Assembly (NCBI GenBank): GCA_012295275.1
Contig: CM022671.1
Location: 27,032,001-27,096,000, forward strand
Length of the DNA stretch: 64,000 nucleotides
From: Chrysomallon squamiferum
Taxonomy: Eukaryota > Animalia > Mollusca
Direction: 5' to 3'
Shown: positions 3,836 through 30,125 of the stretch, one piece after another
Layout: each line of letters begins with the position of its first letter
Numbering within the stretch: the first letter of the stretch is position 1
Program-made: the position numbers and the translations under genes
Notes under the pieces: generated by a model
What the model was told of the DNA's origin: nothing
Databases searched by the model: none
What the model saw: only the letters and a program-made list of their open reading frames with translations

Positions 3836-3908
3836 AGGTTTCGGCGAGGCTCGAACTCGCGACCTTCTGCGTGTTAAGCAGACGTGATAACCACTACACC
3901 ACGAAACC
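3836..3908 (-). tRNA. tRNA-Val(AAC)
   Basis: 73-nt cloverleaf GGTTTCGTGG...TCTGC-TT-AAC-AC-GCAGA...GTTCGAGC...CGAAACCT; A and B boxes intact; T-run downstream. Confidence 0.95.
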
Positions 3909-4192
3909 GTTGAACAAAATCGTGCGATACAAAGCTAGAATCACCAGCATTAACTTTTAGTATACTTGCACGTACAATGTTACAGACATTTATAGGCACA
4001 GTCTTTAATATGCACCAGAGCACCACAGCACGTAGACGACAATATATGAAGGAAAAGTACTCAGGTTTTACAGATTTGAACTAATATTTTTAGAATGAAC
4101 AAAAAATTACTGTCCAGTGACTTTAATTAAACTACTGATGTTTTATTTATTGACTGAACTACGTGATACTATTTACATATAATATATGCGTA

Positions 4193-4265
4193 GGTTTCGT
4201 GGTGTAGTGGTTATCACGTCTGCTTTACACGCAGAAGGTCGCGAGTTCGAGCCTCGCCGGAACCT
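4193..4265 (+). tRNA. tRNA-Val(TAC)
   Basis: Same body with anticodon loop TT-TAC-AC; long oligo-T terminator follows. Confidence 0.95.
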
Positions 4266-4672
4266 TTACTCTTTTTTTTTTTTTTTTTTTTTTTTATTTC
4301 ATTATTTATAAAGAATACTATTTTTTATTATTTTGTCTAATTATTTCAGATATTCGAAAAGATTGCTGTGAAAAAGTAAATATAGCGAAAAAAGCACAGT
4401 CCATAGATATTTTGTGTCTTTTAAGATGCTTCCAAGTATCATAAATAAAGTAAAAAAAAAAAAAAAAGATTTAAGAAATTTTTGAAAGGTTATTTCAAAA
4501 CAGTGTCTCTTTGTCATCTGAATCCAATTTGATATAGTTTTTGCTTTGTTTCCCCTCTCTCTCTCTCTCTCTGAAAATAAAAATTAATTATTAATTGATG
4601 ATATTATACAAGCCAGAATAATCGAAGGAGTAGTACTGAAAAAACTGAAAATGATGGAAAGACTTTTTTAAT

Positions 4673-5406
4673 CTGGTTTCGTTTCTGCACTTGCCTGCAT
4701 ACACAGAATATGAAGTCATTGAAGAAAAACTGAAAGCTATGAACATTGAAATTTCAACACCAATTTACAGGAGATTTTATAAATGATCAAGATATGTAAG
4801 AATAAAATTTCCACTCGAAATAAAGAGGTTACCATACACTATGAAGTTTAGAACCTTTGAAGAAATTGAATATTTACGTGTTTTACACGACAATCAACTC
4901 AAAGTATGTTACAATTGTATGGCTGACACTCATTTACTGAAAGACTGCACAAATATAAGATGTCATCACTGTAAAGGACATTTTACAAGAAATTGCCCTA
5001 AAATTTTTCTTTGTGAAACATTGTGGGAAAAAAGAAGGTGAATCTGAATGTTCGTAAGAGTAAGACAGCGATGACATGAAAAACAGCGACAGTGACAGTG
5101 ATGTTATGAAGTATACTACGGATAATGCAAAACCAAAGAAGAAAAAAGAAAGTGAAGCCAAAAAAAAGAAAAAGATAAATACAATAGAAATGAAAAATTA
5201 TAAGGAAAAATCGCAGATTAGGTAGAAAAAAAAAACAGAAGAAAAAAACTATGAAAAATACTAACAAAGACGCAGAAACCATCGAAGCAGAAAATAGTCA
5301 GCAGAGAAAAACAATGCGTCGAGCGAGATTGATCAGGCGTCCGTCAGAAGAAAAACTGTGGAGTTCGGTAGACAATAGAAAATAAAAAAGAGACAAGCAG
5401 CGCGCA
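4673..5406 (+). mobile_element. Decayed ORF1 of a Tx1/L1-clade non-LTR retrotransposon
   Basis: Translates LVSFLHLPAYTEYEVIEEKLKAMNIEISTPIYRRFYK*SRYVRIKFPLEIKRLPYTMKFRTFEEIEYLRVLHDNQLKVCYNCMADTHLLKDCTNIRCHHCKGHFTRNC. This has a CX2CX4HX4C knuckle plus a second, internally deleted one, then a frameshifted D/E/K-rich tail. Stops and deletions show decay. No ORF2 seen. Family assignment is from motif recognition, not a search. Confidence 0.75.
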
Positions 5407-5712
5407 TGAAACTCTTTGAGAAACAAGAGAGGTATGTTTATTAATTTCAGATCTCCGTTTTTGGGGGGTTTTATTTTTTTTACTTTTTGTGTATTTGATT
5501 TTCTTTTGCGGGGGATCATTTGGGGGCAGTTTAGTGATTTATACATTTTTACTGCTCTCATTCCCATAGCTGCTATTTTAATCAGTTAATTATTGAATAA
5601 TGTTGGGTCACATATTAAATGGAAAAGTAATTTCTCTAGATAAAAACAAAATTCTATAAATTTCCATAACACACATGCAGGAAAAAAGAAAAAAATCAGT
5701 GAAAAGTTTGCC

Positions 5713-5785
5713 AGGTTCCGGCGAGGTTCGAACTCGCGACCTTCTGCGTGTGAAGCAGACGTGATAACCACTACACCACGAAAAC
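5713..5785 (-). tRNA. tRNA-Val(CAC), unit 1 (G2>T acceptor mismatch)
   Basis: Anticodon loop TT-CAC-AC; 5' end reads GTTTTCG; T-loop TTCGAAC. Confidence 0.8.
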
Positions 5786-6028
5786 GTCGTAATCTTATTA
5801 CTTCGTGGAAAGCATTAAGACGTGCCAGTGATAATATAAGACTATACGAATGCGCCCAATAAATGACACGATAAGTTACGTTAAAACTGTTTTTTGTTAC
5901 ATTTGCAAGTTGCATCACTATCGATTATTTATAGTGAAAGCAGAGATTATAAAATATTTTATCAGGAAATCATCATTTCTTTTGCTCATAATTATGACAC
6001 AGTTTACTGCGGAATTATAATACATGCA

Positions 6029-6101
6029 GGTTTCGTGGTGTAGTGGTTATCACGTCTGCTTAACACGCAGAAGGTCGCGAGTTCGATCCTCGCCGAAACC
6101 T
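6029..6101 (+). tRNA. tRNA-Val(AAC), unit 1
   Basis: Complete cloverleaf, T-loop variant TTCGATC, oligo-T terminator. Confidence 0.92.
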
Positions 6102-6599
6102 TGTTTTTTTTTTTTCTTTTTTAAATTATTCTGTTCCCATTACAATGAAACATTTAGTAATAAAATAATTATATCTAAGTGAAGATAGAAACATCAAACC
6201 AAGATTTACAATTCTGAATTTTTTTCTTATTCAGCGATAAAATCTGACAGTTAGTTAATTAAACTAGATAAAAAGACGAAAAGGAAAGTATTTCCTTAAA
6301 AAAGTATTCATTCAAAACATTTTATATCATTCCATTATCTTCAAGTCTGGTATGAATTACGATTTTTCTTCTAAGGAAAAGTCTTCTTATAGAAGTGAGT
6401 TTTCTTTATTATTTTAAACTTATCCTTGTCTGTAGTTATGAACTCTACTCAAACAAGTTTCGTTTAGACAGGTGTTATCTGCTTTAAATAATTCTTACAA
6501 ACAATTTCGAGAAAATGTCTTTCTTTAACTTGAAACTCTTTGAGAAACAAGAGAGGTATTTTTATTAATTTCAGATCTCCGTTTTAGTTGGGGTTTTTT

Positions 6600-6630
<31 letters not shown>

Positions 6631-6846
6631 GTGGGGTTTTGGGGGCGTCTTTTTGGGGGCAGTGTTAGTGATTTATACATTTTTACTGCTCTCATTCCCA
6701 TAGCTGCTGTTTTAATCAGTTAATTATTGAATAATGTTGGGTCACATATTAAATGGAAAAGTAATTTCTCTAGACGAAAACAAAATTCTCTAAATTTCCA
6801 TAACAAATGGGAGGAAAAAAAAAAAAAAATCAGTGAAATGTTTGCC

Positions 6847-6919
6847 AGGTTCCGGCGAGGCTCGAACTCGCGACCTTCTGCGTGTGAAGCAGACGTGATA
6901 ACCACTACACCACGAAACC
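6847..6919 (-). tRNA. tRNA-Val(CAC), unit 2
   Basis: Complete consensus copy. Confidence 0.95.
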
Positions 6920-7163
6920 TGCGTAATCTTATTACTTCGTGGAAAACATTAAGACGTGCCAGTGATAATATAAGACTATACGAATGCGCCCAATAAAATG
7001 ACACGATAAGTTACGTCAAAACTGTTTCTTGTTACATTTGCAAGTTGCATCACTATCGATTATCTATAGTGAAAGCAGAGATTATAAAATATTTTATCAA
7101 GAAATCATCATTTCTTTTGCTCATAATTATGACACAGTTTACTGCGGAATTATAATACATGCA

Positions 7164-7236
7164 GGTTTCGTGGTGTAGTGGTTATCACGTCTGCTTAACA
7201 CGCAGAAGGTCGCGAGTTCGAGCCTCGCCGAAACCT
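7164..7236 (+). tRNA. tRNA-Val(AAC), unit 2
   Basis: Complete consensus copy. Confidence 0.95.
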
Positions 7237-7987
7237 TGTTTTTCTTTTCTTTCTTTTTTAAATTATTCTGTTCCCATTACAATGAAACATTTAGTAATAA
7301 AAGAATTATATCTAAGTGAAGATAGAAACATCAAACCAAGATTTACAATTCTGAATTTTTTTCTTATTCAGCGATAAAATCTGACAGTTAGTTAATTAAA
7401 CTAGATAAAAAGACGAAAAGGAAAGTATTTCCTTAAAAATGTATTCATTCAAAACATTTTACATCATTCCATTATCTTCAACTCTGGTATGAATTACGAT
7501 TTTTGTTCTGAGGAAAAGTCTTCTGATAGAAGTGAGTATTGTTAATTATTTTAAGTTTATCCTTGTCTGTAGTTATGAACTCTACTCAAACAAGTTTCGT
7601 TTAGACAGGTGTTATCTGCTTTAAATAATTCTTACAAACAATTTCGAGAAAATGTCTTTCTTTAACTTGAAACTCTTTGAGAAACAAGAGAGGTATTTTT
7701 ATTAATTTCAGATCTCCGTTTTAGTTTTTTGTTGTTGGTTTTTCTTGATTTTTTTATTTTTTATTTTATTTTTTTTTTTGGGGGGGGTGTCTTTTGGGGG
7801 CAGTGTAGTGATTTATACATTTTTACTGCTCTCATTCCCATAGCTGCTGTTTTAATCAGTTAATTATTAAATAATGTTGGGTCACATATTAAATGGAAAA
7901 GTAATTTCTCTAGACGAAAACAAAATTCTATAAATTTCCATAACAAAATGGGAGGAAAAAAGAAAAAAAAACAGTGAAAAGTTTGCC

Positions 7988-8060
7988 AGGTTCCGGCGAG
8001 GCTCGAACTCGCGACCTTCTGCGTGTGAAGCAGACGTGATAACCACTACACCACGAAACC
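7988..8060 (-). tRNA. tRNA-Val(CAC), unit 3
   Basis: Complete consensus copy. Confidence 0.95.
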
Positions 8061-8304
8061 GTCGTAATCTTATTACTTCGTGGAAAACATTAAGACGTGC
8101 CAGTGATAATATAAGACTATACGAATGCGCCCAATAAAATGACACGATAAGTTACGTTAAAACTGTTTCTTGTTACATTTGCAAGTTGCATCACTATCGA
8201 TTATTTATAGTGAAAGCAGAGATTATAAAATATTTTATCAGGAAATCATCATTTCTTTTGCTCATAATTATGACACAGTTTACTGCGGAATTATAATACA
8301 TGCA

Positions 8305-8377
8305 GGTTTCGTGGTGTAGTGGTTATCACGTCTGCTTAACACGCAGAAGGTCGCGAGTTCGAGCCTCGCCGAAACCT
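8305..8377 (+). tRNA. tRNA-Val(AAC), unit 3
   Basis: Complete consensus copy. Confidence 0.95.
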
Positions 8378-9127
8378 TGTTTTTCTTTTCTTTCTTTTTT
8401 AAATTATTCTGTTCCCATTACAATGAAACATTTAGTAATAAAAGAATTATATCTAAGTGAAGATAGAAACATCAAACCAAGATTTACAATTCTGAATTTT
8501 TTTTCTTATTCAGCGATAAAATCTGACAGTTAGTTAATTAAACTAGATAAAAAGACGAAAAGGAAAGTATTTCCTTAAAAAAGTATTCATTCAAAACATT
8601 TTATATCATTCCATTATCTTCAAGTCTGGTATGAATTACGATTTTTCTTCGAAGGAAAAGTCTTCTTATAGAAGTGAGTTTTCTTTATTATTTTAAACTT
8701 ATCCTTGTCTGTAGTTATGAACTCTACTCAAACAAGTTTCGTTTAGACAGGTGTTATCTGCTTTAAATAATTCTTACAAACAATTTCGAGAAAATGTCTT
8801 TCTTTAACTTGAAACTCTTTGAGAAACAAGAGAGGTATTTTTATTAATTTCAGATCTCCGGTTTATTTTTTTTTTTTTTTTTTTTTGATTTTTTGATTTT
8901 GATTTTTTTGTGGGTTTTTTTGGGGGGTGTCTTTTGGGGGCAGTGTAGTGATTCATACATTTTTACTGCTCTCATTCCCATAGCTGCTGTTTTAATCAGT
9001 TAATTATTGAATAATGTTGGGTCACATATTAAATGGAAAAGTAATTTCTCTAGACGAAAACAAAATTCTCTAAATTTCCATAACAAATGGGAGGAAAAAA
9101 GAAAAAAAAATCAGTGAAAAGTTTGCC

Positions 9128-9200
9128 AGGTTCCGGCGAGGCTCAAACTCGCGACCTTCTGCGTGTGAAGCAGACGTGATAACCACTACACCACGAAACC
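9128..9200 (-). tRNA. tRNA-Val(CAC), unit 4, B-box mutant (C56>T), likely inactive
   Basis: T-loop reads GTTTGAGC instead of GTTCGAGC. Confidence 0.75.
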
Positions 9201-9440
9201 TGCGTAATCTTATTACTTCGTGGAAAACATTAAGACGTGCCAGTGATAATATAAGACTATACGAATGCGCCCAATAAAATGACACGATAAGTTACGTCAA
9301 AACTGTTTCTTGTTACATTTGCAAGTTGCATCACTATCGATTATTTATAGTGAAAGCAGAGATTATAAAATATTTTATCAGGAAATCATCATTTCTTTTG
9401 CTCATAATTATGACACAGTTTACTGCGGAATTATAATACA

Positions 9441-9460
9441 TTCGAGCCTCGCCGAAACCT
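9441..9460 (+). pseudogene. tRNA-Val(AAC) remnant, unit 4 (57-bp deletion)
   Basis: aataca joins directly to ttcgagcctcgccgaaacct (tRNA nt 54-73); the unit is correspondingly shorter. Confidence 0.9.
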
Positions 9461-10209
9461 TGTTTTTCTTTTCTTTCTTTTTTAAATTATTCTGTTCCCA
9501 TTACAATGAAACATTTAGTAATAAAAGAATTATATCTAAGTGAAGATAGAAACATCAAACCAAGATTTACAATTCTGAATTTTTTTTCTTATTCAGCGAT
9601 AAAATCTGACAGTTAGTTAATTAAACTAGATAAAAAGACGAAAAGGAAAGTATTTCCTTAAAAAAGTATTCATTCAAAACATTTTATATCATTCCATTAT
9701 CTTCAAGTCTGGTATGAATTACGATTTTTCTTCGAAGGAAAAGTCTTCTTATAGAAGTGAGTTTTCTTTATTATTTTAAACTTATCCTTGTCTGTAGTTA
9801 TGAACTCTACTCAAACAAGTTTCGTTTAGACAGGTGTTATCTGCTTTAAATAATTCTTACAAACAATTTCGAGAAAATGTCTTTCTTTAACTTGAAACTC
9901 TTTGAGAAACAAGAGAGGTATTTTTATTAATTTCAGATCTCCGGTTTTTTTTTTTTTTTTAGTTTTTTTTTGATTTTTTGATTTTGATTTTTTTGTGGGT
10001 TTTTGGGGGGGTGTCTTTTGGGGGCAGTGTAGTGATTCATACATTTTTACTGCTCTCATTCCCATAGCTGCTGTTTTAATCAGTTAATTATTGAATAATG
10101 TTGGTTCACATATTAAATGAAAAAGTAATTTCTCTAGACGAAAACAAAATTCTATAAATTTCCATAACAAATGGGAGTAAAAAAGAAAAAAATCAGTGAA
10201 AAGTTTGCC

Positions 10210-10282
10210 AGGTTCCGGCGAGGCTCGAACTCGCGACCTTCTGCGTGTGAAGCAGACGTGATAACCACTACACCACGAAACC
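10210..10282 (-). tRNA. tRNA-Val(CAC), unit 5
   Basis: Complete consensus copy. Confidence 0.95.
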
Positions 10283-10526
10283 GTCGTAATCTTATTACTT
10301 CGTGGAAAACATTAAGACGTGCCAGTGATAATATAAGACTGTACGAATGCGCCCAATAAAAGGACACGATAAGTTACGTTAAAACTGTTTCTTGTTGCAT
10401 TTGCAAGCTGCATCACTATCGATTATTTATAGTGAAAGCAGAGATTATAAAATATTTTATCAGGAAATCATCATTTCTTTTGCTCATAATTATGACACAG
10501 TTTACTGCGGAATTATAATACATGCA

Positions 10527-10599
10527 GGTTTCGTGGTGTAGTGGTTATCACGTCTGCTTAACACGCAGAAGGTCGCGAGTTCGAGCCTCGCCGAAACCT
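10527..10599 (+). tRNA. tRNA-Val(AAC), unit 5
   Basis: Complete consensus copy. Confidence 0.95.
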
Positions 10600-11343
10600 T
10601 GTTTTTCTTTTCTTTCTTTTTTAAATTATTCTGTTCCCATTACAATGAAACATTTAGTAATAAAAGAATGATATCTAAGTGAAGACAGAAACATCAAACC
10701 AAGATTTACAATTCTGAATTTTTTTCTTATTCGGCAATAAAATGTGACAGTTAGTTAATTAAACTAGATAAAAAGACGAAAAGGAAAGTATTTCCTTAAA
10801 AAGTATTCATTCAAAACATTTTATATCATTCCATTATCTTCAAGTCTGGTATGAATTACGATTTTTCTTCTAAGGAAAAGTCTTCTTGTAGAAGTGAGTT
10901 TTCTTTATTATTTTAAACTTATCCTTGTCTGTAGTTATGAACTCTACTCAAACAAGTTTCGTTTAGACAGGTAAAAGCAGTTAACCTGCTTTAAATAATT
11001 CTTACAAACAATTTCGAGAAAATGTCTTTCTTTAACTTGAAACTCTTTGAGAAACAAGAGAGGTATGTTTATTAATTTCAGATCTCCGTTTTTGTTTTTG
11101 GTTTTATTGATTTTTTATTTTGATTTTTTTTGTTTTTGTAATGGGGTCTTTTTGGGGGCAGTGTAGTGATTTATGGATTTTTACTGCTCTCATTCCCATA
11201 GCTGCTGTTTTAATCAGTTAATTATTGAATAATGTTGGGTCACATATTAAATGGAAAAGTAATTTTTCTAGACGAAAACAAAATTCTATAAATTTCCATA
11301 ACAAATGGGAGGAAAAAAGAAAAAAATCAGTGAAAAGTTTGCC

Positions 11344-11416
11344 AGGTTCCGGCGAGGCTCGAACTCGCGACCTTCTGCGTGTGAAGCAGACGTGATAACC
11401 ACTACACCACGAAACC
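11344..11416 (-). tRNA. tRNA-Val(CAC), unit 6
   Basis: Complete consensus copy. Confidence 0.95.
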
Positions 11417-11660
11417 GTCGTAATCTTATTACTTCCTGGAAAACATTAAGACGTGCCAGTGATAATATAAGACTATACGAATTCGCCCAATAAAATGACA
11501 CGATAAGTTACGTTAAAACTGTTTCTTGTTGCATTTGCAAGTTGCATCACTATCGATTATTTATTGTGAAAGCAGAGATTATAAAATATTTTATCAGGAA
11601 ATCATCATTTCTTTTGCTCATAATTATGACACAGTTTACTGCGGAATTATAATACATGCA

Positions 11661-11733
11661 GGTTTCGTGGTGTAGTGGTTATCACGTCTGCTTAACACGC
11701 AGAAGGTCGCGAGTTCGAGCCTCGCCGAAACCT
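11661..11733 (+). tRNA. tRNA-Val(AAC), unit 6
   Basis: Complete consensus copy. Confidence 0.95.
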
Positions 11734-12481
11734 TGTTTTTCTTTTCTTTCCTTTTTTAAATTATTCTGTTCCCATTACAATGAAACATTTAGTAATAAAA
11801 GAATGATATCTAAGTGAAGACAGAAACATCAAACCAAGATTTACAATTCTGAATTGTTTTCGTATTCAGCAATAAAATCTGACAGTTAGTTAATTAAACT
11901 AGATAAAAAGACGAAAAGGAAAGTATTTCCTTAAAAAAGTATTCATTCAAAACATTTTATATCATTCCATTATCTTCAAGTCTGGTATGAATTACGATTT
12001 TTCTTCTAAGGAAAAGTCTTCTTATAGAAGTGAGTTTTCTTTATTATTTTAAACTTATCCTTGTCTGTAGTTATGAACTCTACTCAAACAAGTTTCGTTT
12101 AGACAGGTAAAAGCAGTTAACCTGCTTTTAAATAATTCTTACAAACAATTTCGGGAAAATGTCTTTCTTTAACTTGAAACTCTTTGAGAAACAAGAGAGG
12201 TATGTTTATTAATTTCAGATCTCCGTTTTTGTTTTTGGTTTTTATTGATTTTTTTATTTTGATTTTTTTGTTTTTTGTACGGGGGTCTTTTGGGGGCAGT
12301 GTAGTGATTTATGGATTTTTACTGCTCTCATTCCCATAGCTGCTGTTTTAATCAGTTAATTATTGAATAATGTTGGGTCACATATTAAATGGAAAAGTAA
12401 TTTCTCTAGACGAAAACAAAATTCTATAAATTTCCATAACAAATGGGAGGAAAAAAGAAAAAAATCAGTGAAAAGTTTGCC

Positions 12482-12554
12482 AGGTTCCGGCGAGGCTCGA
12501 ACTCGCGACCTTCTGCGTGTGAAGCAGACGTGATAACCACTACACCACGAAACC
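12482..12554 (-). tRNA. tRNA-Val(CAC), unit 7
   Basis: Complete consensus copy. Confidence 0.95.
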
Positions 12555-12798
12555 GTCGTAATCTTATTACTTCGTGGAAAACATTAAGACGTGCCAGTGA
12601 TAATATAAGACTATACGAATGCGCCCAACAAAAGGACACGATAAGTTACGTTAAAACTGTTTCTTGTTGCATTTGCAAGTTGCATCACTATCGATTATTT
12701 ATAGTGAAAGCAGAGATTATAAAATATTTTATCAGGAAATCATCATTTCTTTTGCTCATAATTATGACACAGTTTACTGCGGAATTATAATACATGCA

Positions 12799-12871
12799 GG
12801 TTTCGTGGTGTAGTGGTTATCACGTCTGCTTAACACGCAGAAGGTCGCGAGTTCGAGCCTCGCCGAAACCT
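12799..12871 (+). tRNA. tRNA-Val(AAC), unit 7
   Basis: Complete consensus copy. Confidence 0.95.
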
Positions 12872-13615
12872 TGTTTTTCTTTTCTTTCTTTTTTAAATTA
12901 TTCTGTTCCCATTACAATGAAACATTTAGTAATAAAAGAATGATATCTAAGTGAAGACAGAAACATCAAACCAAGATTTACAATTCTGAATTGTTTTCGT
13001 ATTCAGCAATAAAATCTGACAGTTAGTTAATTAAACTAGATAAAAAGACGAAAAGGAAAGTATTTCCTTAAAAAAGTATTCATTCAAAACATTTTATATC
13101 ATTCCATTATCTTCAAGTCTGGTATGAATTACGATTTTTCTTCTAAGGAAAAGTCTTCTTATAGAAGTGAGTTTTCTTTATTATTTTAAACTTATCCTTG
13201 TCTGTAGTTATGAACTCTACTCAAACAAGTTTCGTTTAGACAGGTAAAAGCAGTTAACCTGCTTTAAATAATTCTTACAAACAATTTCGGGAAAATGTCT
13301 TTCTTTAACTTGAAACTCTTTGAGAAACAAGAGAGGTATGTTTATTAATTTCAGATCTCCGTTTTTGTTTTTGGTTTTTATTGATTTTTTTATTTTGATT
13401 TTTTTGTTTTTTGTACGGGGGTCTTTTGGGGGCAGTGTAGTGATTTATGGATTTTTACTGCTCTCATTCCCATAGCTGCTGTTTTAATCAGTTAATTATT
13501 GAATAATGTTGGGTCACATATTAAATGGAAAAGTAATTTTTCTAGACGAAAACAAAATTCTATAAATTTCCATAACAAATGGGAGGAAAAAGAAAAAATC
13601 AGTGAAAAGTTTGCC

Positions 13616-13688
13616 AGGTTCCGGCGAGGCTCGAACTCGCGACCTTCTGCGTGTGAAGCAGACGTGATAACCACTACACCACGAAACC
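13616..13688 (-). tRNA. tRNA-Val(CAC), unit 8
   Basis: Complete consensus copy. Confidence 0.95.
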
Positions 13689-13932
13689 GTCGTAATCTTA
13701 TTACTTCCTGGAAAACATTAAGACGTGCCAGTGATAATATAAGACTATACGAATTCGCCCAATAAAATGACACGATAAGTTACGTTAAAACTGTTTCTTG
13801 TTGCATTTGCAAGTTGCATCACTATCGATTATTTATTGTGAAAGCAGAGATTATAAAATATTTTATCAGGAAATCATCATTTCTTTTGCTCATAATTCAG
13901 ACACAGTTTACTGCGGAATTATAATACATGCA

Positions 13933-14005
13933 GGTTTCGTGGTGTAGTGGTTATCACGTCTGCTTAACACGCAGAAGGTCGCGAGTTCGAGCCTCGCCGA
14001 AACCT
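13933..14005 (+). tRNA. tRNA-Val(AAC), unit 8
   Basis: Complete consensus copy. Confidence 0.95.
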
Positions 14006-14750
14006 TGTTTTTCTTTTCTTTCTTTTTTAAATTATTCTGTTCCCATTACAATGAAACATTTAGTAATAAAAGAATGATATCTAAGTGAAGACAGAAACAT
14101 CAAACCAAGATTTACAATTCTGAATTGTTTTCGTATTCAGCAATAAAATCTGACAGTTAGTTAATTAAACTAGATAAAAAGACGAAAAGGAAAGTATTTC
14201 CTTAAAAAAGTATTCATTCAAAACATTTTATATCATTCCATTATCTTCAAGTCTGGTATGAATTACGATTTTTCTTCTAAGGAAAAGTCTTCTTATAGAA
14301 GTGAGTTTTCTTTATTATTTTAAACTTATCCTTGTCTGTAGTTATGAACTCTACTCAAACAAGTTTCGTTTAGACAGGTAAAAGCAGTTAACCTGCTTTA
14401 AATAATTCTTACAAACAATTTCGGGAAAATGTCTTTCTTTAACTTGAAACTCTTTGAGAAACAAGAGAGGTATGTTTATTAATTTCAGATCTCCGTTTTT
14501 GTTTTTCGTTTTTTTGATTTTTTGATTTTGATTTTTTTGTTTTTTGTAGGGGGGTCTTTTGGGGGCAGTGTAGTGATTTATACATTTTTACTGCTCTCAT
14601 TCCCATAGCTGCTGTTTTAATCAGTTAATTATTGAATAATGTTGGGTCACATATTAAATGGAAAAGTAATTTCTCTAGACGAAAACAAAATTCTCTAAAT
14701 TTCCATAACAAATGGGAGGAAAAAAGAAAAAAATCAGTGAAAAGTTTGCC

Positions 14751-14823
14751 AGGTTCCGGCGAGGCTCGAACTCGCGACCTTCTGCGTGTGAAGCAGACGT
14801 GATAACCACTACACCACGAAACG
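14751..14823 (-). tRNA. tRNA-Val(CAC), unit 9 (G1>C acceptor mismatch)
   Basis: 5' end reads CGTTTCG, breaking the 1-72 pair. Confidence 0.78.
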
Positions 14824-15067
14824 TTCGTAATCTTAATACTTCGTGGAAAACATTAAGACGTGCCAGTGATAATATAAGACTATACGAATGCGCCCAATAA
14901 AATGACACGATAAGTTACGTTAAAACTGTTTCTTGTTGCATTTGCAAGTTGCATCACTATCGATTATTTATAGTGAAAGCAGAGATTATAAAATATTTTA
15001 TCAGGAAATCATCATTTCTTTTGCTCATAATTATGACACAGTTTACTGCGGAATTATAATACATGCA

Positions 15068-15140
15068 GGTTTCGTGGTGTAGTGGTTATCACGTCTGCTT
15101 AACACGCAGAAGGTCGCGAGTTCGAGCCTCGCCGAAACCT
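15068..15140 (+). tRNA. tRNA-Val(AAC), unit 9
   Basis: Complete consensus copy. Confidence 0.95.
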
Positions 15141-15886
15141 TGTTTTTCTTTTCTTTCTTTTTTAAATTATTCTGTTCCCATTACAATGAAACATTTAGTA
15201 ATAAAAGAATGATATCTAAGTGAAGACAGAAACATCAAACCAAGATTTACAATTCTGAATTTTTTTCTTATTCGGCAATAAAATGTGACAGTTAGTTAAT
15301 TAAACTAGATAAAAAGACGAAAAGGAAAGTATTTCCTTAAAAAAGTATTCATTCAAAACATTTTATATCATTCCATTATCTTCAAGTCTGGTATGAATTA
15401 CGATTTTTCTTCTAAGGAAAAGTCTTCTTGTAGAAGTGAGTTTTCTTTATTATTTTAAACTTATCCTTGTCTGTAGTTATGAACTCTACTCAAACAAGTT
15501 TCGTTTAGACAGGTAAAAGCAGTTAACCTGCTTTAAATAATTCTTACAAACAATTTCGAGAAAATGTCTTTCTTTAACTTGAAACTCTTTGAGAAACAAG
15601 AGAGGTATGTTTATTAATTTCAGATCTCCGTTTTTGTTTTTGGTTTTTATTGATTTTTTTATTTTGATTTTTTTGTTTTTTGTACGGGGGTCTTTTGGGG
15701 GCAGTGTAGTGATTTATGGATTTTTACTGCTCTCATTCCCATAGCTGCTGTTTTAATCAGTTAATTATTGAATAATGTTGGGTCACATATTAAATGGAAA
15801 AGTAATTTTTCTAGACGAAAACAAAATTCTATAAATTTCCATAACAAATGGGAGGAAAAAAGAAAAAAATCAGTGAAAAGTTTGCC

Positions 15887-15959
15887 AGGTTCCGGCGAGG
15901 CTCGAACTCGCGACCTTCTGCGTGTGAAGCAGACGTGATAACCACTACACCACGAAACC
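15887..15959 (-). tRNA. tRNA-Val(CAC), unit 10
   Basis: Complete consensus copy. Confidence 0.95.
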
Positions 15960-16235
15960 GTCGTAATCTTATTACTTCCTGGAAAACATTAAGACGTGCC
16001 AGTGATAATATAAGACTATACGAATTCGCCCAATAAAAGGACACGATAAGTTACGTTAAAACTGTTTCTTGTTACATTTGCAAGTTGCATCACTATCGAT
16101 TATTTATAGTGAAAGCAGAGATTATAAAATATTTTATCAGGAAATCATCATTTCTTTTGCTCATAATTATGACACAGTTTACTGCGGAATTATAATACAT
16201 GCAGGTTTCGTGGTGTAGTGGTTATCACGTCTGCT

Positions 16236-16307
16236 CTCCGCGGCTGGAGTCGGGACGTTTCCCCCACGGGAACGAACCCCGGCTTGAGAGAAAAAAAAAA
16301 AAAAAAA
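16236..16307 (+). other. Unidentified 55-nt GC-rich hairpin-forming segment followed by A17, at the 5' end of the insert
   Basis: ctccgcggctggagtcgggacgtttcccccacgggaacgaaccccggcttgagag+A17. gagtcggg pairs with cccggctt, and cgtt(t)ccc pairs with gggaacg around a ccac loop. Confidence 0.8.
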
Positions 16308-17472
16308 GAGTGGAACGGAAGTGGATGTAACAAAGATGAAAGATTCCGAGCGTCCCAGTACCTAATTGGTCTGGTACAAGAGAGGAATGGAAGAGCTAAG
16401 ACTGAAGTAATAGATGAAGATGGTAAAGACTCAGATACTCGAAGGAAAAAGGCTGAGTTTATGAAATTTCTCACTGAAGAGGACTGTGAGGACACAGAAA
16501 AGCAGTATGAGGCAGCTGACACATGTAAACAACTGTTCAGACTCTCTGATGCTAGTGGCAGTTTGCAGTTTTCTCTGGAAAAAGAAGGCACTGTTACCAA
16601 AGGTGACTTTGACAGCAAGGATGTGTTTATCTTTGACACAAAGCAGCAGCTCTTTGTGTGGATAGGTAAACAGACAAGTCCAGAAGAAAAGAAGAATGCA
16701 CTTGTTTATGCTCACAAATATCTGATGAAGTCAGATCATCCACTTGTACCAGTGAGCTGTCTGAAGGAGGAAAGACCAAACCACGCGTTCCTTAGTGCCA
16801 TCGCAGCCTGAGCCAGAAACACTGAAACAATTTATTTTTAACCGTTGATCTTTGGTGAAATGTTTATCATTATGTTCATTGGTACCCTCGCAACTTGAAC
16901 TAGATAAACAGAAACATTTTATCTTTAACTGTGAACTTTGGTGAAATGGTTATAATTATGAAACTATTATTAACTTGTGAATTAAATTGCAATTCTAACA
17001 TCATTGTCTTATGATATTGTTAAAACACTTTAAAATGTAAAACAACTTGCTAAATACTGTTTCACTGGTAATCACGTTTTGAAAACATTTTATTATCTTG
17101 GTTGGGGAGATGAAAAATTTATTAATTTGTCTAGTTGTTATTAATTCTTTTTGTTTCTGGTATTTTACAAATTTTGTTAATAGAAAACAACTCCTGTTTT
17201 CAGTTAGTTCATGGAAATCTTGTAATGAAAACCATGAGCCAACAATAACTTTTAGATGTCATAATAAAAACAGATTATAACATCACACTCAACGTTTTTA
17301 GGTTGGTTGCTCAAAGAATATATTAGAACAAGAAATCAAATAGTTGGAAAAATACATTTTTAATATTACATACATACATTTTAAATTGTTCTCCTGTACA
17401 AAAATATATAAATACCTTGTTATGAAGAAAAAGAGTAATAAATGTTTTTAATCTAAAAAAAAAAAAAAAAAA
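16308..17472 (+). pseudogene. 5'-truncated processed retrocopy of a gelsolin-like (gelsolin/severin family) mRNA
   Basis: Uninterrupted intronless frame 16308-16811 (WNGSGCNKDERFRA...QLFRLSDASGSL...DSKDVFIFDTKQQLFVWIGKQTSPEEKKNAL, gelsolin-repeat motifs), 3'UTR, AATAAA 17437-17442, A18 17455-17472, then the TSD. Confidence 0.93.
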
Positions 17473-18273
17473 GTTATCACGTCTGCTTAACACGCAGAAG
17501 GTCGCGAGTTCGAGCCTCGCCGAAACCTTGTTTTTCTTTTCTTTCTTTTTTAAATTATTCTGTTCCCATTACAATGAAACATTTAATAATAAAAGAATGA
17601 TATCTAAGTGAAGACAGAAACATCAAACCAAGATTTACAATTCTGAATTGTTTTCGTATTCAGCAATAAAATCTGACAGTTAGTTAATTAAACTAGATAA
17701 AAAGACGAAAAGGAAAGTATTTCCTTAAAAAAGTATTCATTCAAAACATTTTATATCATTCCATTATCTTCAAGTCTGGTATGAATTACGATTTTTCTTC
17801 TAAGGAAAAGTCTTCTTATAGAAGTGAGTTTTCTTTATTATTTTAAACTTATCCTTGTCTGTAGTTATGAACTCTACTCAAACAAGTTTCGTTTAGACAG
17901 GTAAAAGCAGTTAACCTGCTTTAAATAATTCTTACAAACAATTTCGGGAAAATGTCTTTCTTTAACTTGAAACTCTTTGAGAAACAAGAGAGGTATGTTT
18001 ATTAATTTCAGATCTCCGTTTTTGTTTTTCGTTTTTTTGATTTTTTGATTTTGATTTTTTTGTTTTTTGTAGGGGGGTCTTTTGGGGGCAGTGTAGTGAT
18101 TTATACATTTTTACTGCTCTCATTCCCATAGCTGCTGTTTTAATCAGTTAATTATTGAATAATGTTGGGTCACATATTAAATGGAAAAGTAATTTCTCTA
18201 GACGAAAACAAAATTCTCTAAATTTCCATAACAAATGGGAGGAAAAAAGAAAAAAATCAGTGAAAAGTTTGCC

Positions 18274-18346
18274 AGGTTCCGGCGAGGCTCGAACTCGCGA
18301 CCTTCTGCGTGTGAAGCAGACGTGATAACCACTACACCACGAAACC
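18274..18346 (-). tRNA. tRNA-Val(CAC), unit 11
   Basis: Complete consensus copy; its upstream flank is interrupted by the H1 retrocopy. Confidence 0.93.
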
Positions 18347-18390
18347 GTCGTAATCTTATTACTTCCTGGAAAACATTAAGACGTGCCAGT

Positions 18391-19519
18391 AGTACTTCGT
18401 AAAGCGGTTGCCGTGTGTTCGTTACTGAATTTCAGTTAAATCTTCGTAGAAAACTTTAGATATCGAAAATGTCTGATGCAGCAGTAGCAGCAGTACCTAC
18501 TCCAAAGGTGAAAACACCCAAGAAAAAGAGTACGAAGCCAAAGACGCCGTCCGAACATCCTAAATACAGCCAAATGATTAAAGAAGCGATTGTTGCTCTA
18601 AAGGAAAAAGGCGGTTCGTCTAGACAAGCAATCCTGCAGTATGTTGTGAAGCATTACAAGGTAACCGACGAGAAAACTGTCAACCAACATTTGAAAATGG
18701 CACTGAGGGCTGGAGTGAAAAACAACAGTTTAAAACACGCTAAAGGATCGGGCGCCTCCGGATCTTTCAAACTCGGAGAAACAAAAACACCCAAAGTGAA
18801 GAAGCCAGCAGCTAAAAAAGTAAAGAAACCGAAGACTGCCAAACCCAAGAAAGTCACGAAGACAAAATCGCCCAAAAAGCCCAAGACAGCTAAACCGAAA
18901 AAGGCCAAGGAAGCAAAGCCTAAGGTAAAGAAATCACCCAAAAAGGCAGCGAAACCCAAAGTCACAAAGGCTGCAGCAGCAAAACCTAAAGTAAAGAAGC
19001 CCAAGACGCCCAAAAAGGCAGCGAAGAAGTAAACCAACAAAAATGTTAAGAGGTGCAATGGACATTCATTATTTATCAGTGGTTTCCTGACAGTACAGAT
19101 CTGCGTGTGTTCGTTTCTAGGATATTCTTACGTCAACAACATTTATATTGATGTGACGAGGTGACTATAGTCTGCGGAGAGAAAATAGTGTGAATGAACT
19201 GGATGACAAGATTTTTAGAACGTTTTTCATTTCTGAAAGTTACAAACTTCATCATATTGTTAATCTTTCATGGACCATCGGTGTACATATAATTCATAAA
19301 AAAAAAAAGTGTCATTTTTATACAAACTTTGTTTAAATATTCTTTTGTTTTGTTTAAAAAAAAAAGAAGAAAAATAGTGCTTCATAGACCTTAGAGATAA
19401 ACAATGTTTACCATTTTGAAAATGGGACACAATTCTGTATCATTATATGTATGAAACTGAGAGTGTTATAACTAATCATCATTAAATATTATCTGTTTAC
19501 ATTTGAAAAAAAAAAAAAA
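18391..19519 (+). other. Processed retrocopy of a polyadenylated histone H1 mRNA
   Basis: 13-bp TSD aagacgtgccagt at 18378-18390 and 19520-19532 (leading As ambiguous with the tail); 78-nt 5'UTR, ORF, 3'UTR, ATTAAA 19481-19486, poly(A) from 19506. Confidence 0.95.
18469..19032 (+). CDS. H1: Linker histone H1 (H1.0/H1-delta-like replication-independent type), intact 187-aa ORF within the retrocopy
   Basis: Globular domain HPKYSQMIKEAIVALKEKGGSSRQAI...GSGASGSFKL, K/A/P-rich tail with S/TPKK motifs; no histone 3' stem-loop; poly(A) tail present. Confidence 0.93.
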   Translation: MSDAAVAAVPTPKVKTPKKKSTKPKTPSEHPKYSQMIKEAIVALKEKGGSSRQAILQYVVKHYKVTDEKTVNQHLKMALRAGVKNNSLKHAKGSGASGSFKLGETKTPKVKKPAAKKVKKPKTAKPKKVTKTKSPKKPKTAKPKKAKEAKPKVKKSPKKAAKPKVTKAAAAKPKVKKPKTPKKAAKK

Positions 19520-19732
19520 AAGACGTGCCAGTGATAATATAAGACTATACGAATGCGCCCAATAAAAGGACACGATAAGTTACGTTAAAACTGTTTCTTG
19601 TTGCATTTGCAAGTTGCATCACTATCGATTATTTATAGTGAAAGCAGAGATTATAAAATATTTTATCAGGAAATCATCATTTCTTTTGCTCATAATTATG
19701 ACACAGTTTACTGCGGAATTATAATACATGCA

Positions 19733-19805
19733 GGTTTCGTGGTGTAGTGGTTATCACGTCTGCTTAACACGCAGAAGGTCGCGAGTTCGAGCCTCGCCGA
19801 AACCT
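19733..19805 (+). tRNA. tRNA-Val(AAC), unit 11
   Basis: Complete consensus copy. Confidence 0.95.
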
Positions 19806-20003
19806 TGTTTTTCTTTTCTTTCTTTTTTAAATTTTTCTGTTCCCATTACAATGAAGCATTTAGTAATTAAAGAATTATATCTAACTGGAAATAGAAACAT
19901 CAAATATTTTTTTGAAACGTTTTTTCTATACTAGTGTCTATTTGTCATTTAATTCCAGCTAGATAAAATATCTCTCTCTCTCTCTGCCAAAAAGTTAAAA
20001 AAG

Positions 20004-20042
20004 GGTTATCATGCCTGCTTTACATGCAAAAGGTCACGAGTT
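20004..20042 (+). pseudogene. Decayed tRNA-Val(TAC) fragment (nt 17-55)
   Basis: ggttatcatgcctgctttacatgcaaaaggtcacgagtt differs from the 4193 gene at 5 positions, 3 of them CpG transitions. Confidence 0.75.
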
Positions 20043-20270
20043 GTGATGTGATGAGGAACAAAGTGAAACAGAAGAAAGTAAGTAACAGAATAAGAATTCT
20101 GGATGAAGCTGACAGTGGAAGTCCCGCATAAACAGACGAAAGTCTTGTTGTTGTTTTTTCAGTGTGTATCTAATGACTTTGAAAATCTTTCACATGTAAT
20201 GTATGCTAAATATTTTCGTAAGACATCGCTCTTTACGACTTCACAGGAATACTGGAATGTTGTATATAAC

Positions 20271-20348
20271 GGTTTCGTGGTGTAGTGGTTATCAACTAAA
20301 AAACATGAAAACTAAAACGGAGATCTGAAATTAATAAAATTACCTCTT
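20271..20348 (+). pseudogene. tRNA-Val 5' fragment (nt 1-24) joined to an inverted piece of the array spacer
   Basis: ggtttcgtggtgtagtggttatca at 20271-20294, then aaactaaaacggagatctgaaattaataaaa, the reverse complement of the spacer motif ttttattaatttcagatctccgttttagttt. Confidence 0.8.
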
Positions 20349-21748
20349 GGTAGAATCCCATTTCGTAGAATGGCTAAATGTGGTTCAGTGGTCTTATTGA
20401 CATGTTTGGTTTTACCTCAGTCATTATAATGAACTGCTCCAGATTATTTGGAAAGCGATTATTATTGTATAAATACAGTAATATTTCACTTAATGATACC
20501 ACGCTTTAACAATCTTTCTTCTTTACAAATTATATAAATAGAAATTTAATTTAATAGTTAATTGCTCGAAATAAATGATACAAATGTATACAGTGCATGT
20601 TTTTAAGTCCTTTTTCTTTAATTTTTCGTTCATTCACGAGCTTCTCTCAGTTGTGTTGATCAGTTGACACGTCATATGTGCATCTGATATTCTGATTCTC
20701 TTTTGTCTTCTGCTTCGATTTAGACTTAAACTTGTTTGTAATTTACCCTTCCAATATGTCAAAACGAATAACAGTATACCGGCAAATGCTGATGATAAAA
20801 GAAAGGGAAGATAATAACTTTAGAAACAAAATACATTATCTTAAATGAAACCAAAACCCACAATCAGCGGCATATACTTATTTCTTAATGTATTTGTATA
20901 AATTAATTTGTAAATGATTTACTGTTTATTTAATATCTACAATCTATTAAATCATTTATGTCTAAACTGCCGTTTTATTTCTCCTTATTTCAGCTTTTTT
21001 TTTTATGTCAGATCTCATCAGCGAGAAAGTAACCACTGCTTTTAACCTTAATTCTATGTAAATTAGTCTCCCGCTTACCTAACTTAATTATTGGAAGTTT
21101 TGGAACCAATATCATCTTTAATCTGAGGTATTATTGTAGTATGGATATTGCTTATCGCATAAAGTATGACAAATATCGAAATAATCTATGTATCGAATAT
21201 AGTGAATGTAAATAATTAAAAAAGAAGGTATTTATCTAAAAGTATTCCCAATGATTTGGTCCTTCGTATAAACTTTTTCAGTCATAGCCAAAGTATTTGC
21301 AGGTCATAATATCTTTAGTGTACACACTATTAATATACTATGTCACATATATTGTATAATATGTGCACAATGTGAATATGTATGTGTGCAAACGTAAATA
21401 TGATCAGTAACAGATATCTTGTACATGTTTAAGCTGAATACGGTTGAATTCGAAAAGTTAATGATAAATGTAACGTTCAAATACTCTATTTACTGAATAT
21501 AAGTAAATTACTCATATGTAAAATATGTTTTGTTAAAAATTATATTTGCTGAATTAGTTATTTATAATATTTTTGTCGTATTCTCTTACAGAAGCAAGCC
21601 ATTTTTCTTTTCTTTCATTCTTTTTTCGTTTTGTATTTTAATAGATAGATGAAATTGATGTAAAATTGTTTATTATTGGTTGCTTGTTTTGTAACGGAAA
21701 TGAAATGTTTATGAATTAGAAATGACCAGTTTAAAAAAAAAAAAAATA

Positions 21749-21779
<31 letters not shown>

Positions 21780-22166
21780 GTAACAGTAATTATAATAAGA
21801 AGAATAAGAAGAATAACAATAATAATAATAATAACAACAATAATAATAGTAATAATATTATAATAATAATAATAATGTTGATGATGATAATTATGATGAT
21901 GATAATGAGAAGGAGGAAGATGATGAAATAATGAAAAAGTAACAAATCAACAACAAATGAGTTGTGAATGCTTATTCTGCTTTCGGTTGATGTTACATAA
22001 TCGATTTAGGAACAATGCGCTCCCCATCTGAATGTTAGAAAGAAACCAGATGTATGCACAGGCCAAGTTCATTATATACAGAGGTTATCAGGTATTGCGG
22101 TAAACCAGGTTTTTCTACGAAATGGGAATTATACGAACTGGGAATCTACCAAATGGGAAGACACCC
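20347..22166. mobile_element. Possible decayed non-autonomous DNA transposon with repetitive inverted termini
   Basis: ttggtagaatcccatttcgtagaa (20347-20370) is inverted relative to ttctacgaaatgggaattatacgaactgggaatctaccaaatggg (from 22113). The left end is truncated and no TSD is visible. Confidence 0.35.
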
Positions 22167-23488: not shown

Positions 23489-29994
<6,506 letters not shown>

Positions 29995-30125
29995 ATTTAT
30001 TTATTTATTTATTTATTTATTTATTGCTCTTTTTCAGCCAAAGATATATATTTTACAGGGATCAAGTATCAAGTTTAATGAATCAGATGCCAAATATTTG
30101 CAGTTTTTATATTTAAGGATTTCCT

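Follow-up and report, generated by a model that had tools for sequence, protein, structure and literature searches.

Can a tandem array of tRNA genes attract host messenger RNAs (mRNAs) that are copied back into an animal genome? The landing of retrocopies is usually regarded as near random. The question is raised by a stretch of 64,000 nucleotides from the gastropod Chrysomallon squamiferum (NCBI GenBank assembly GCA_012295275.1, contig CM022671.1, positions 27,032,001 to 27,096,000 of the forward strand), hereafter the window, whose own numbering is used throughout. In it, an array of tRNA-Val genes carries what appear to be young retrocopies of two unrelated host mRNAs, one for a gelsolin-like protein and one for a histone H1. 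A preliminary description of this DNA had proposed that a Tx1-like long interspersed element (LINE) directed at tRNA genes funnels host RNAs into such arrays. We find that the pair of retrocopies is real and unusual, and that a LINE with a regional bias towards tRNA genes may tentatively account for it.

Two retrocopies in adjacent units of a tRNA-Val array

The array and the unit positions it holds are as follows.

5407-19904, no strand assigned: tandem array of 11 units of ~1.135 kb each (1083-1145 bp), ~14.5 kb in total

Every unit consists of a tRNA-Val(CAC) gene on the minus strand and a tRNA-Val(AAC) gene on the plus strand, divergent and head to head. For the window, ARAGORN and Rfam both give a total of 22 tRNA genes. 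The array accounts for 20 of these, so that an intact gene occupies 20 of its 22 unit positions; of the other two, one carries a gene deleted at its 5' side, near 9441, and one the gene that insert 1 interrupts. The former belongs to unit 4 (1083 bp), where a deletion at ~9436-9445 has removed ~53 nt from the start of the tRNA-Val(AAC) together with its 5' flank. The units diverge from each other by 0.5-6.5%, and units 7, 8 and 10 by only 0.5-0.8%, which points to recent homogenisation.

Both inserts lie on the plus strand of adjacent units, 890 bp apart, close to the ~900 bp given in the preliminary description. The poly(A) tails and perfect target-site duplications reported there are also borne out (A18 and 15 bp for insert 1, A16 and 13 bp for insert 2). 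Exact duplications at a fixed junction are expected by chance with probabilities of ~1e-8 and 2e-6, and the sibling units of the array provide an empty-site reference for both. Together with the loss of introns in the gelsolin copy, the tails and duplications support the reading of both inserts as host poly(A) mRNAs copied in by target-primed reverse transcription. Each insert is present in 1 of the 11 units, so that neither has been amplified; the idea that the array multiplies its cargo finds no support in this count, despite the low divergence of units 7, 8 and 10.

A spliced gelsolin copy splits a tRNA gene

Insert 1 has the following parts.

16236-17472, plus strand: insert 1 as a whole, made of a hairpin, A17, a gelsolin complementary DNA (cDNA) and A18, inside one 15-bp duplication
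16204-17528, plus strand: split tRNA-Val(AAC) gene of unit 10, with nt 1-32 on the left and nt 18-73 on the right; called by neither ARAGORN nor Rfam
16221-16235, plus strand: left copy of the 15-bp target duplication, corresponding to tRNA nt 18-32
16236-16290, plus strand: stem-loop of 55 nt and 69% GC, the 5' end of insert 1
16291-16307, plus strand: internal A17, between the hairpin and the gelsolin cDNA
16308-17454, plus strand: gelsolin-like protein 2 cDNA, spliced and 5'-truncated, coding to 16811 and then 3' untranslated region (UTR)
16437-16451, plus strand: cassette microexon of 15 nt (5 residues), kept in the retrocopy
17455-17472, plus strand: poly(A) tail of insert 1, A18
17473-17487, plus strand: right copy of the target duplication, an exact match to 16221-16235

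The insertion breaks the tRNA-Val(AAC) gene of unit 10 directly after its A box. With 1.25 kb now separating its A box from its B box, this gene would likely be dead. At the other end of the insert, an AATAAA poly(A) signal starts 18 nt before the A18 tail. The best named match of the copy is the gelsolin-like protein 2 of the peltospirid vent snail Gigantopelta aegis (80%), and the copy starts near residue 206 of this 367-residue homologue, so that ~205 of the 367 codons are missing and the copy itself supplies no start codon. The claim that both copies are free of disabling mutations is not confirmed: H1 has an intact open reading frame (ORF) of 187 residues, and gelsolin is 5'-truncated, lacks a start codon and is fused to a foreign 55-nt hairpin and A17.

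We aligned to insert 1 the contigs of three DNA runs from two studies (X1, X2 and X4) and of one RNA run (X8); 27 of the 60 aligned pieces are listed. The RNA contig reaches 467 letters further in the 5' direction than the copy, which confirms the truncation. The joints between exons are at 16436/37, 16451/52, 16540/41, ~16619/20 and 16715/16. Loose contig ends of the type expected from introns occur after 16436 and 16540, where they begin with GT, and before 16450, 16536 and 16716, where they end in AG or are completed by it; contig ends also indicate a further intron near 16619. All three DNA runs contain, in addition to these introns of the parent gene, pieces that cross the joints without a mismatch: 16407-16479 (X1, X4), 16407-16540 (X2), 16591-16647 (X1, X4) and 16686-16745 (X1, X2). 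If bridging is taken to require 31 letters to either side of a joint, the X2 piece alone qualifies (at 16451/52), the other pieces having 28-30 letters on one side, which is typical of short branch contigs. The introns of the parent have been lost from the copy, as expected of a processed pseudogene. Samples of two studies therefore contain the spliced form as DNA, and it is likely to be this very insertion, the comparison covering the gelsolin part of the insert. The joined pieces have depths of 24-28 against 86-109 for the shared exons in X1, 8-9 against 14-23 in X2, and 76-77 against 182-336 in X4; this could suggest about one copy per diploid, but nothing is concluded from it, depth not being equivalent to copy number.

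The copy is very young. It differs from the contigs of all four runs by three substitutions and one single-base gap over ~1130 nt, and the longest piece of the parent in X1 shows 6 differences and 1 gap in 729. With so few differences, the copy is ~99% identical to its parent, about as close as alleles are. It also keeps a trace of its source: the 15-mer at 16437-16451 is a cassette microexon because ends of parent introns flank it on both sides, and the RNA contig of X8 skips it, while isoform X2 of the Gigantopelta homologue lacks it. The retrocopy thus shows that the source cell, likely one of the germ line, made a gelsolin isoform with the microexon.

A hairpin-ended RNA probably caught in the same event

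The hairpin, A17, gelsolin and A18 make up two parts that derive from RNA and are oriented alike, with one duplication enclosing both and none between them, which implies that both arrived in one event. Sequential insertion of the hairpin and of gelsolin is ruled out by the lack of a duplication between them, and a twin-priming inversion of gelsolin was judged unlikely on reasoning alone, since the coding part would then have to contain a T17 run. To judge from this arrangement, the hairpin probably represents the 3' terminus of another RNA, caught by template switching. Template switching is a known route to same-orientation chimeras (bioRxiv 10.1101/2025.02.02.635956; PMC4494074), and many 3' ends of LINEs and of short interspersed elements (SINEs) have a stem-loop followed by an A tail (PMC3472496; PMC3159450). 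This likeness makes the hairpin the best handle on the element that drove the insertion; alternatively, it may be a fragment of a polyadenylated ribosomal RNA or small RNA.

The predicted fold has -25.2 kcal/mol, with z scores of ~-2.0 for the hairpin alone and -2.5 with its tail; 8 of 200 shuffled sequences fold as well in the first case and 5 of 200 in the second. A search of Rfam gave only chance-level matches (mir-320 with E 4.3 and a trypanosomatid snoRNA with E 3.7), and BLAST showed no other copy in the window among the matches listed. A 20-base pattern drawn from the hairpin has 0 matches in prokaryote genomes. It matches at two loci, in metagenome contigs of 61-62% GC, where the likeness covers 22 of the 55 bases only and was taken as chance.

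A histone H1 copy upstream of a tRNA gene

Insert 2 and its surroundings comprise the following features.

18274-18346, minus strand: tRNA-Val(CAC) of unit 11, intact
18378-18390, plus strand: left copy of the 13-bp target duplication, at a TT/AAGA site (the slash marks the cut)
18391-19521, plus strand: insert 2 as a whole, H1 cDNA and A16
18391-19505, plus strand: histone H1-delta-like cDNA, apparently full-length, with a 5' UTR of 78 nt, an ORF at 18469-19032 and a 3' UTR
19506-19532, plus strand: A16 tail and right copy of the duplication (19520-19532), the last two A being shared

The best named match of the encoded protein is an H1-delta-like protein of Gigantopelta aegis, with 87% over the aligned part, in keeping, like the gelsolin match, with a gastropod host close to that snail. 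An ATTAAA poly(A) signal starts 25 nt before the A16 tail, and the histone stem-loop motif was not found in the copy (18391-19505). The duplication is made of 11 bases other than A and of 2 A. The first base of the insert lies 44 bases upstream of the first base of the tRNA-Val(CAC) gene, and the insert is directed away from that gene.

Target sites and the favoured mechanism

What the two sites have in common is their location: each, though unrelated to the other, is at the 5' end of a tRNA gene. Positions within a tRNA gene or up to 55 bp upstream make up 23% of a unit, so that both sites would fall there by chance with a probability of ~0.05, a calculation made post hoc. In sequence they share nothing, gelsolin having entered at tRNA nt 18-32 and H1 at 31-44 bases upstream of another tRNA gene, which argues against a single site-specific enzyme of the Dewa or Keno type. 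The preliminary description had invoked a single target like those of Dewa, Keno and Mutsu, and this is not supported, one site being inside a tRNA gene without a T-rich primer and the other a TT/AAGA in the spacer. A T-rich nick site of the L1 type, as defined by its consensus, is present at the H1 insert and lacking at the gelsolin insert. Nor does the target sequence explain the cluster, since the array is not enriched in L1-type sites: the density of TT/AA(A/G)A is 6.2/kb in the array and 7.4/kb in the rest of the window.

We favour, tentatively and with somewhat less than even confidence, a poly(A)-reading LINE of the L1/Tx1 type whose loose endonuclease is biased towards the open chromatin of tRNA genes transcribed by RNA polymerase III (Pol III). 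The capture of mRNA by its poly(A) is a property of the L1 clade, to which Tx1 belongs (PMC3472496). Two host mRNAs would have been copied very recently into adjacent units by target-primed reverse transcription, with the ORF2 protein of a LINE supplying the enzyme in trans. Its endonuclease would cut open, Pol III-occupied tRNA chromatin more than bulk DNA, a bias that would be regional, set by accessibility or nicks, and independent of the recognition of a single sequence. On insert 1, the reverse transcriptase would have left the gelsolin mRNA mid-gene and switched to the A tail of the hairpin-ended RNA. The redundant array would survive the loss of one tRNA gene.

Several points weigh against this mechanism. 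First, it relies on two inserts at one locus, chosen by a scan that sought oddities and taken without a genome-wide background. Second, a T-rich primer for poly(A), as typical L1 sites offer, is missing at the gelsolin site. Third, Pfam found no ORF2 in the window, in a scan that barely detects the ORF1 fragment described below. Fourth, open chromatin at the array is a presumed state. Fifth, H1 genes of this kind are perhaps natively intronless, and the comparison with sequencing runs covers the gelsolin insert alone.

A possible LINE dedicated to tRNA genes

The strongest alternative is a dedicated LINE, either tethered by TFIIIB or TFIIIC as TRE5 is or cutting in tRNA-Val, that accepts any poly(A) RNA and of which, or of whose SINE, the hairpin and A17 are the 3' end. 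We consider it unlikely. The TRE5 elements of Dictyostelium, of the L1 clade, insert ~44-54 bp upstream of tRNA genes in the opposite orientation (PMC5911963), and the H1 copy, 44 bases upstream and likewise in the opposite orientation, has such a position; this window and orientation represent 1.3% of the unit-by-orientation space, again post hoc. The gelsolin site, which begins at the end of the A box, is not of the L1 type, and the stem-loop before the poly(A) of insert 1 is typical of LINE and SINE 3' ends. Non-LTR (lacking long terminal repeats) families specific for tRNA genes are known in animals (LIN15_SM and LIN25_SM; PMC4640811), and the ORF1 fragment is a third retro-derived piece, located between two pairs of tRNA-Val genes. 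Against this, the two sites are unlike in both sequence and position, only one of the two inserts has the TRE5 position, the other being within a tRNA, and the H1 site is an ordinary TT/AAGA. None of the 11 units holds the LINE, which should be found far more often than host mRNA. The hairpin has no family match (Rfam, 20-base pattern). Finally, TRE5-A, the one well-studied tRNA-tethered LINE, requires its own 3' stem-loop and is reported to make no processed pseudogenes in its genome (PMC3159450), whereas the cargo here is host mRNA. The fuller version of this alternative is just as doubtful: an animal LINE would combine TRE5-like tethering to Pol III with L1-like, relaxed recognition of poly(A) and so deliver mRNA retrocopies to tRNA arrays, the hairpin would be its 3' end or that of its SINE, joined by a template switch, and the arrays of this lineage would be nurseries of retrogenes, the H1 copy already having an intact full-length ORF.

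Chance, a single burst or artefact as possible alternatives

It is rather improbable, in our view, that the cluster results from two independent, unbiased events in a retrocopy-rich genome, with the scan having picked out this array. All probabilities of the cluster rest on assumed numbers of retrocopies and genome sizes. That of two retrocopies in a given 14.5 kb is 2e-7 to 1e-2 for 50-5000 copies in 0.4-1.2 Gb, and 2e-5 to 2e-4 at 500 copies per genome. That of one among 30 arrays holding two reaches ~0.36 at 5000 copies and 0.4 Gb and falls to 0.0005-0.005 at 500. A chance origin thus needs a retrocopy-rich genome, two young copies in 14.5 kb being improbable at these assumed densities unless there are thousands of retrocopies per genome. 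Coincidence is also favoured by the normal L1-type site of H1 and by gelsolin and H1 being plausibly abundant mRNAs. It is disfavoured by the very young age of the gelsolin copy, which narrows the relevant pool, and by the content of the other ~49 kb of the window. There, a scan for poly(A) with duplications found no convincing retrocopy, as had been claimed, and only 4 weak low-complexity hits, within the range of shuffled sequences (mean of 2.2 hits; at least 4 in 18 of 100 shuffles). The candidates at 24307/24859 and 63234/62054 were rejected on inspection as low-complexity matches, and the two long-range hits, at 44770 and 49574, are known from the scan alone. For 19905-64000, a six-frame Pfam search gave exons of phospholipase B, WD40 and SOCS-box and zero transposon protein domains; Pfam is a weak control for transposon remains, the ORF1 fragment itself reaching only E 0.08.

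A single germ-line episode, in which nicks or breaks in the array were patched with cDNA of two or three RNAs and no lasting preference exists, has little probability. The inserts lie in adjacent units, on one strand and 890 bp apart, and there are other scars at the 5' halves of tRNA genes (the deletion near 9441 and an inverted fragment at 20269-20347), as such an episode could leave. Clean duplications of 13 and 15 bp nevertheless fit staggered endonuclease cuts better than the repair of breaks.

An assembly artefact, by cDNA contamination or mis-joined repeats, is very improbable: tandem arrays are hard to assemble, none of the listed contig pieces spans insert 1 and the junctions of inserts with the array have no read support, but the exact duplications at both inserts and the mismatch-free spliced pieces in all three DNA runs, where the introns occur as well, speak against it.

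An old ORF1 fragment beside the array

The remains of a LINE do abut the array.

4598-5406, plus strand: decayed non-LTR ORF1 fragment of type I, with an RRM-like domain and CCHC knuckles, L1/Tx1-like, covering about residues 65-355 of ~375

In tblastn, two stretches resemble unnamed ORF1-like proteins (P0244-P0247): 4673-5032 with 60-65% identity and 5269-5406 with 50-56%. In a protein atlas, the neighbours of residues 1-235 of P0244 are clusters of zf-CCHC and of the ZCCHC3 RNA-binding domain, with scores of 0.93-0.94. A type I ORF1 fits Tx1 in non-mammalian animals (PMC5203782), which by itself does not give a placement in that clade.

The preliminary description was right that a Tx1/L1-type ORF1 abuts the array on the same strand as the inserts, and it saw in it a sign of the driving element. 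The fragment carries stops, frameshifts and deletions. It meets the array at 5407 in mid-ORF, ~20 codons before the end, with an overlap of at most 5 bases and 306 bp from the nearest tRNA gene, and there is no ORF2, 3' UTR or poly(A) of the element at this joint. The joint is one of deletion or recombination and no retrotransposition junction. The fragment is far older than the gelsolin copy, a relic that is uninformative on targeting and not the driver, so that this part of the earlier argument is not supported. Its open-frame relatives P0244 and P0245 belong to clusters on long contigs that count 15 and 28 members at ≥90% identity, which suggests recent activity of such LINEs in a related genome. 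A (CT)n run at ~4555-4572, just 5' of the fragment, recalls the (TC)n target of Kibi (PMC4494074) and is a lead only.

Comparison with known systems

Each component of the locus is of a known kind, be it the retrocopy, the template-switch chimera, the tRNA-targeted element or trans-mobilisation to a Tx1 target. The processed pseudogenes and template-switch chimeras made by mammalian L1 (bioRxiv 10.1101/2025.02.02.635956; PMC4494074) share with the inserts the poly(A), duplications of 9-19 bp, 5' truncation and a foreign 5' piece of RNA within one duplication. They differ in that here the host is a gastropod, the two copies are clustered within a tRNA array, the 5' piece, an A-tailed hairpin, matches no known family and one site is not T-rich. 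With the Tx1 families Dewa (tRNA-Leu spacer), Keno (U2), Mutsu (5S) and Kibi (PMC3706591; PMC4494074), the locus shares a landing site in multicopy small-RNA genes and a nearby relic of an RRM/CCHC-type ORF1, whereas here there is no common target site, no copy of the element in the 11 units and no ORF2 for clade placement. The closest published case that we found is the SINEU of crocodilians, moved in trans by Tx1-Mar, a target-biased Tx1 that brings other RNA to its own target (PMC4494074); there a SINE family enters Mariner, here single host mRNAs enter tRNA genes. Insertion inside a tRNA gene is also made by LIN15_SM, LIN25_SM and NeSL-1_TV (PMC4640811) and by Dada DNA transposons (PMC3706591), some of whose duplications are part of the A box. 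These elements insert themselves and not host mRNA, and Dada makes duplications of 6-7 bp and has no poly(A). For a cluster of host-mRNA retrocopies in the tRNA array of an animal, no precedent was found in the literature searched, which included few subscription papers.

Significance

If mRNA retrocopies are biased towards animal tRNA arrays, then the choice of target and the choice of cargo are separable. There would also be a class of gene duplicates located in repeats that short-read assemblies collapse, and a natural enzyme able to place arbitrary poly(A) RNA in a redundant locus. The arrays would act as landing zones for gene copies. If the bias is absent, there remains a young and well-documented chimeric retrocopy in which a gelsolin isoform with its microexon, likely of germ-line origin, is preserved.

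Neighbouring features

The window has 27% GC. To the left of the ORF1 fragment lies an older pair of divergent tRNA genes outside the array, both called by ARAGORN and Rfam.

3836-3908, minus strand: tRNA-Val(AAC)
4193-4265, plus strand: tRNA-Val(TAC), partner of the former, 333 bp upstream of the ORF1 fragment

The spacer of this head-to-head pair (3836-4265) is unrelated to that of the array, and the whole cluster therefore has AAC, CAC and TAC anticodons. To the right of the array there is a decayed tRNA-Val-like remnant of 39 nt (20004-20042, 87% identity), followed at 20269-20347 by an inverted and internally deleted piece of a unit, in which tRNA-Val nt 1-24 are fused to reverse-oriented spacer. 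Similar short motifs occur in opposite orientation at 20351-20375 and 22113-22159, with a 15-16-bp repeat of two to three copies at 22113; they may mark the termini of a small non-autonomous DNA transposon. Further to the right are a phospholipase B gene with introns (~23500-30000, plus strand) and, tail to tail with it, a WD40/SOCS-box (WSB-like) gene (33455-~37000, minus strand).

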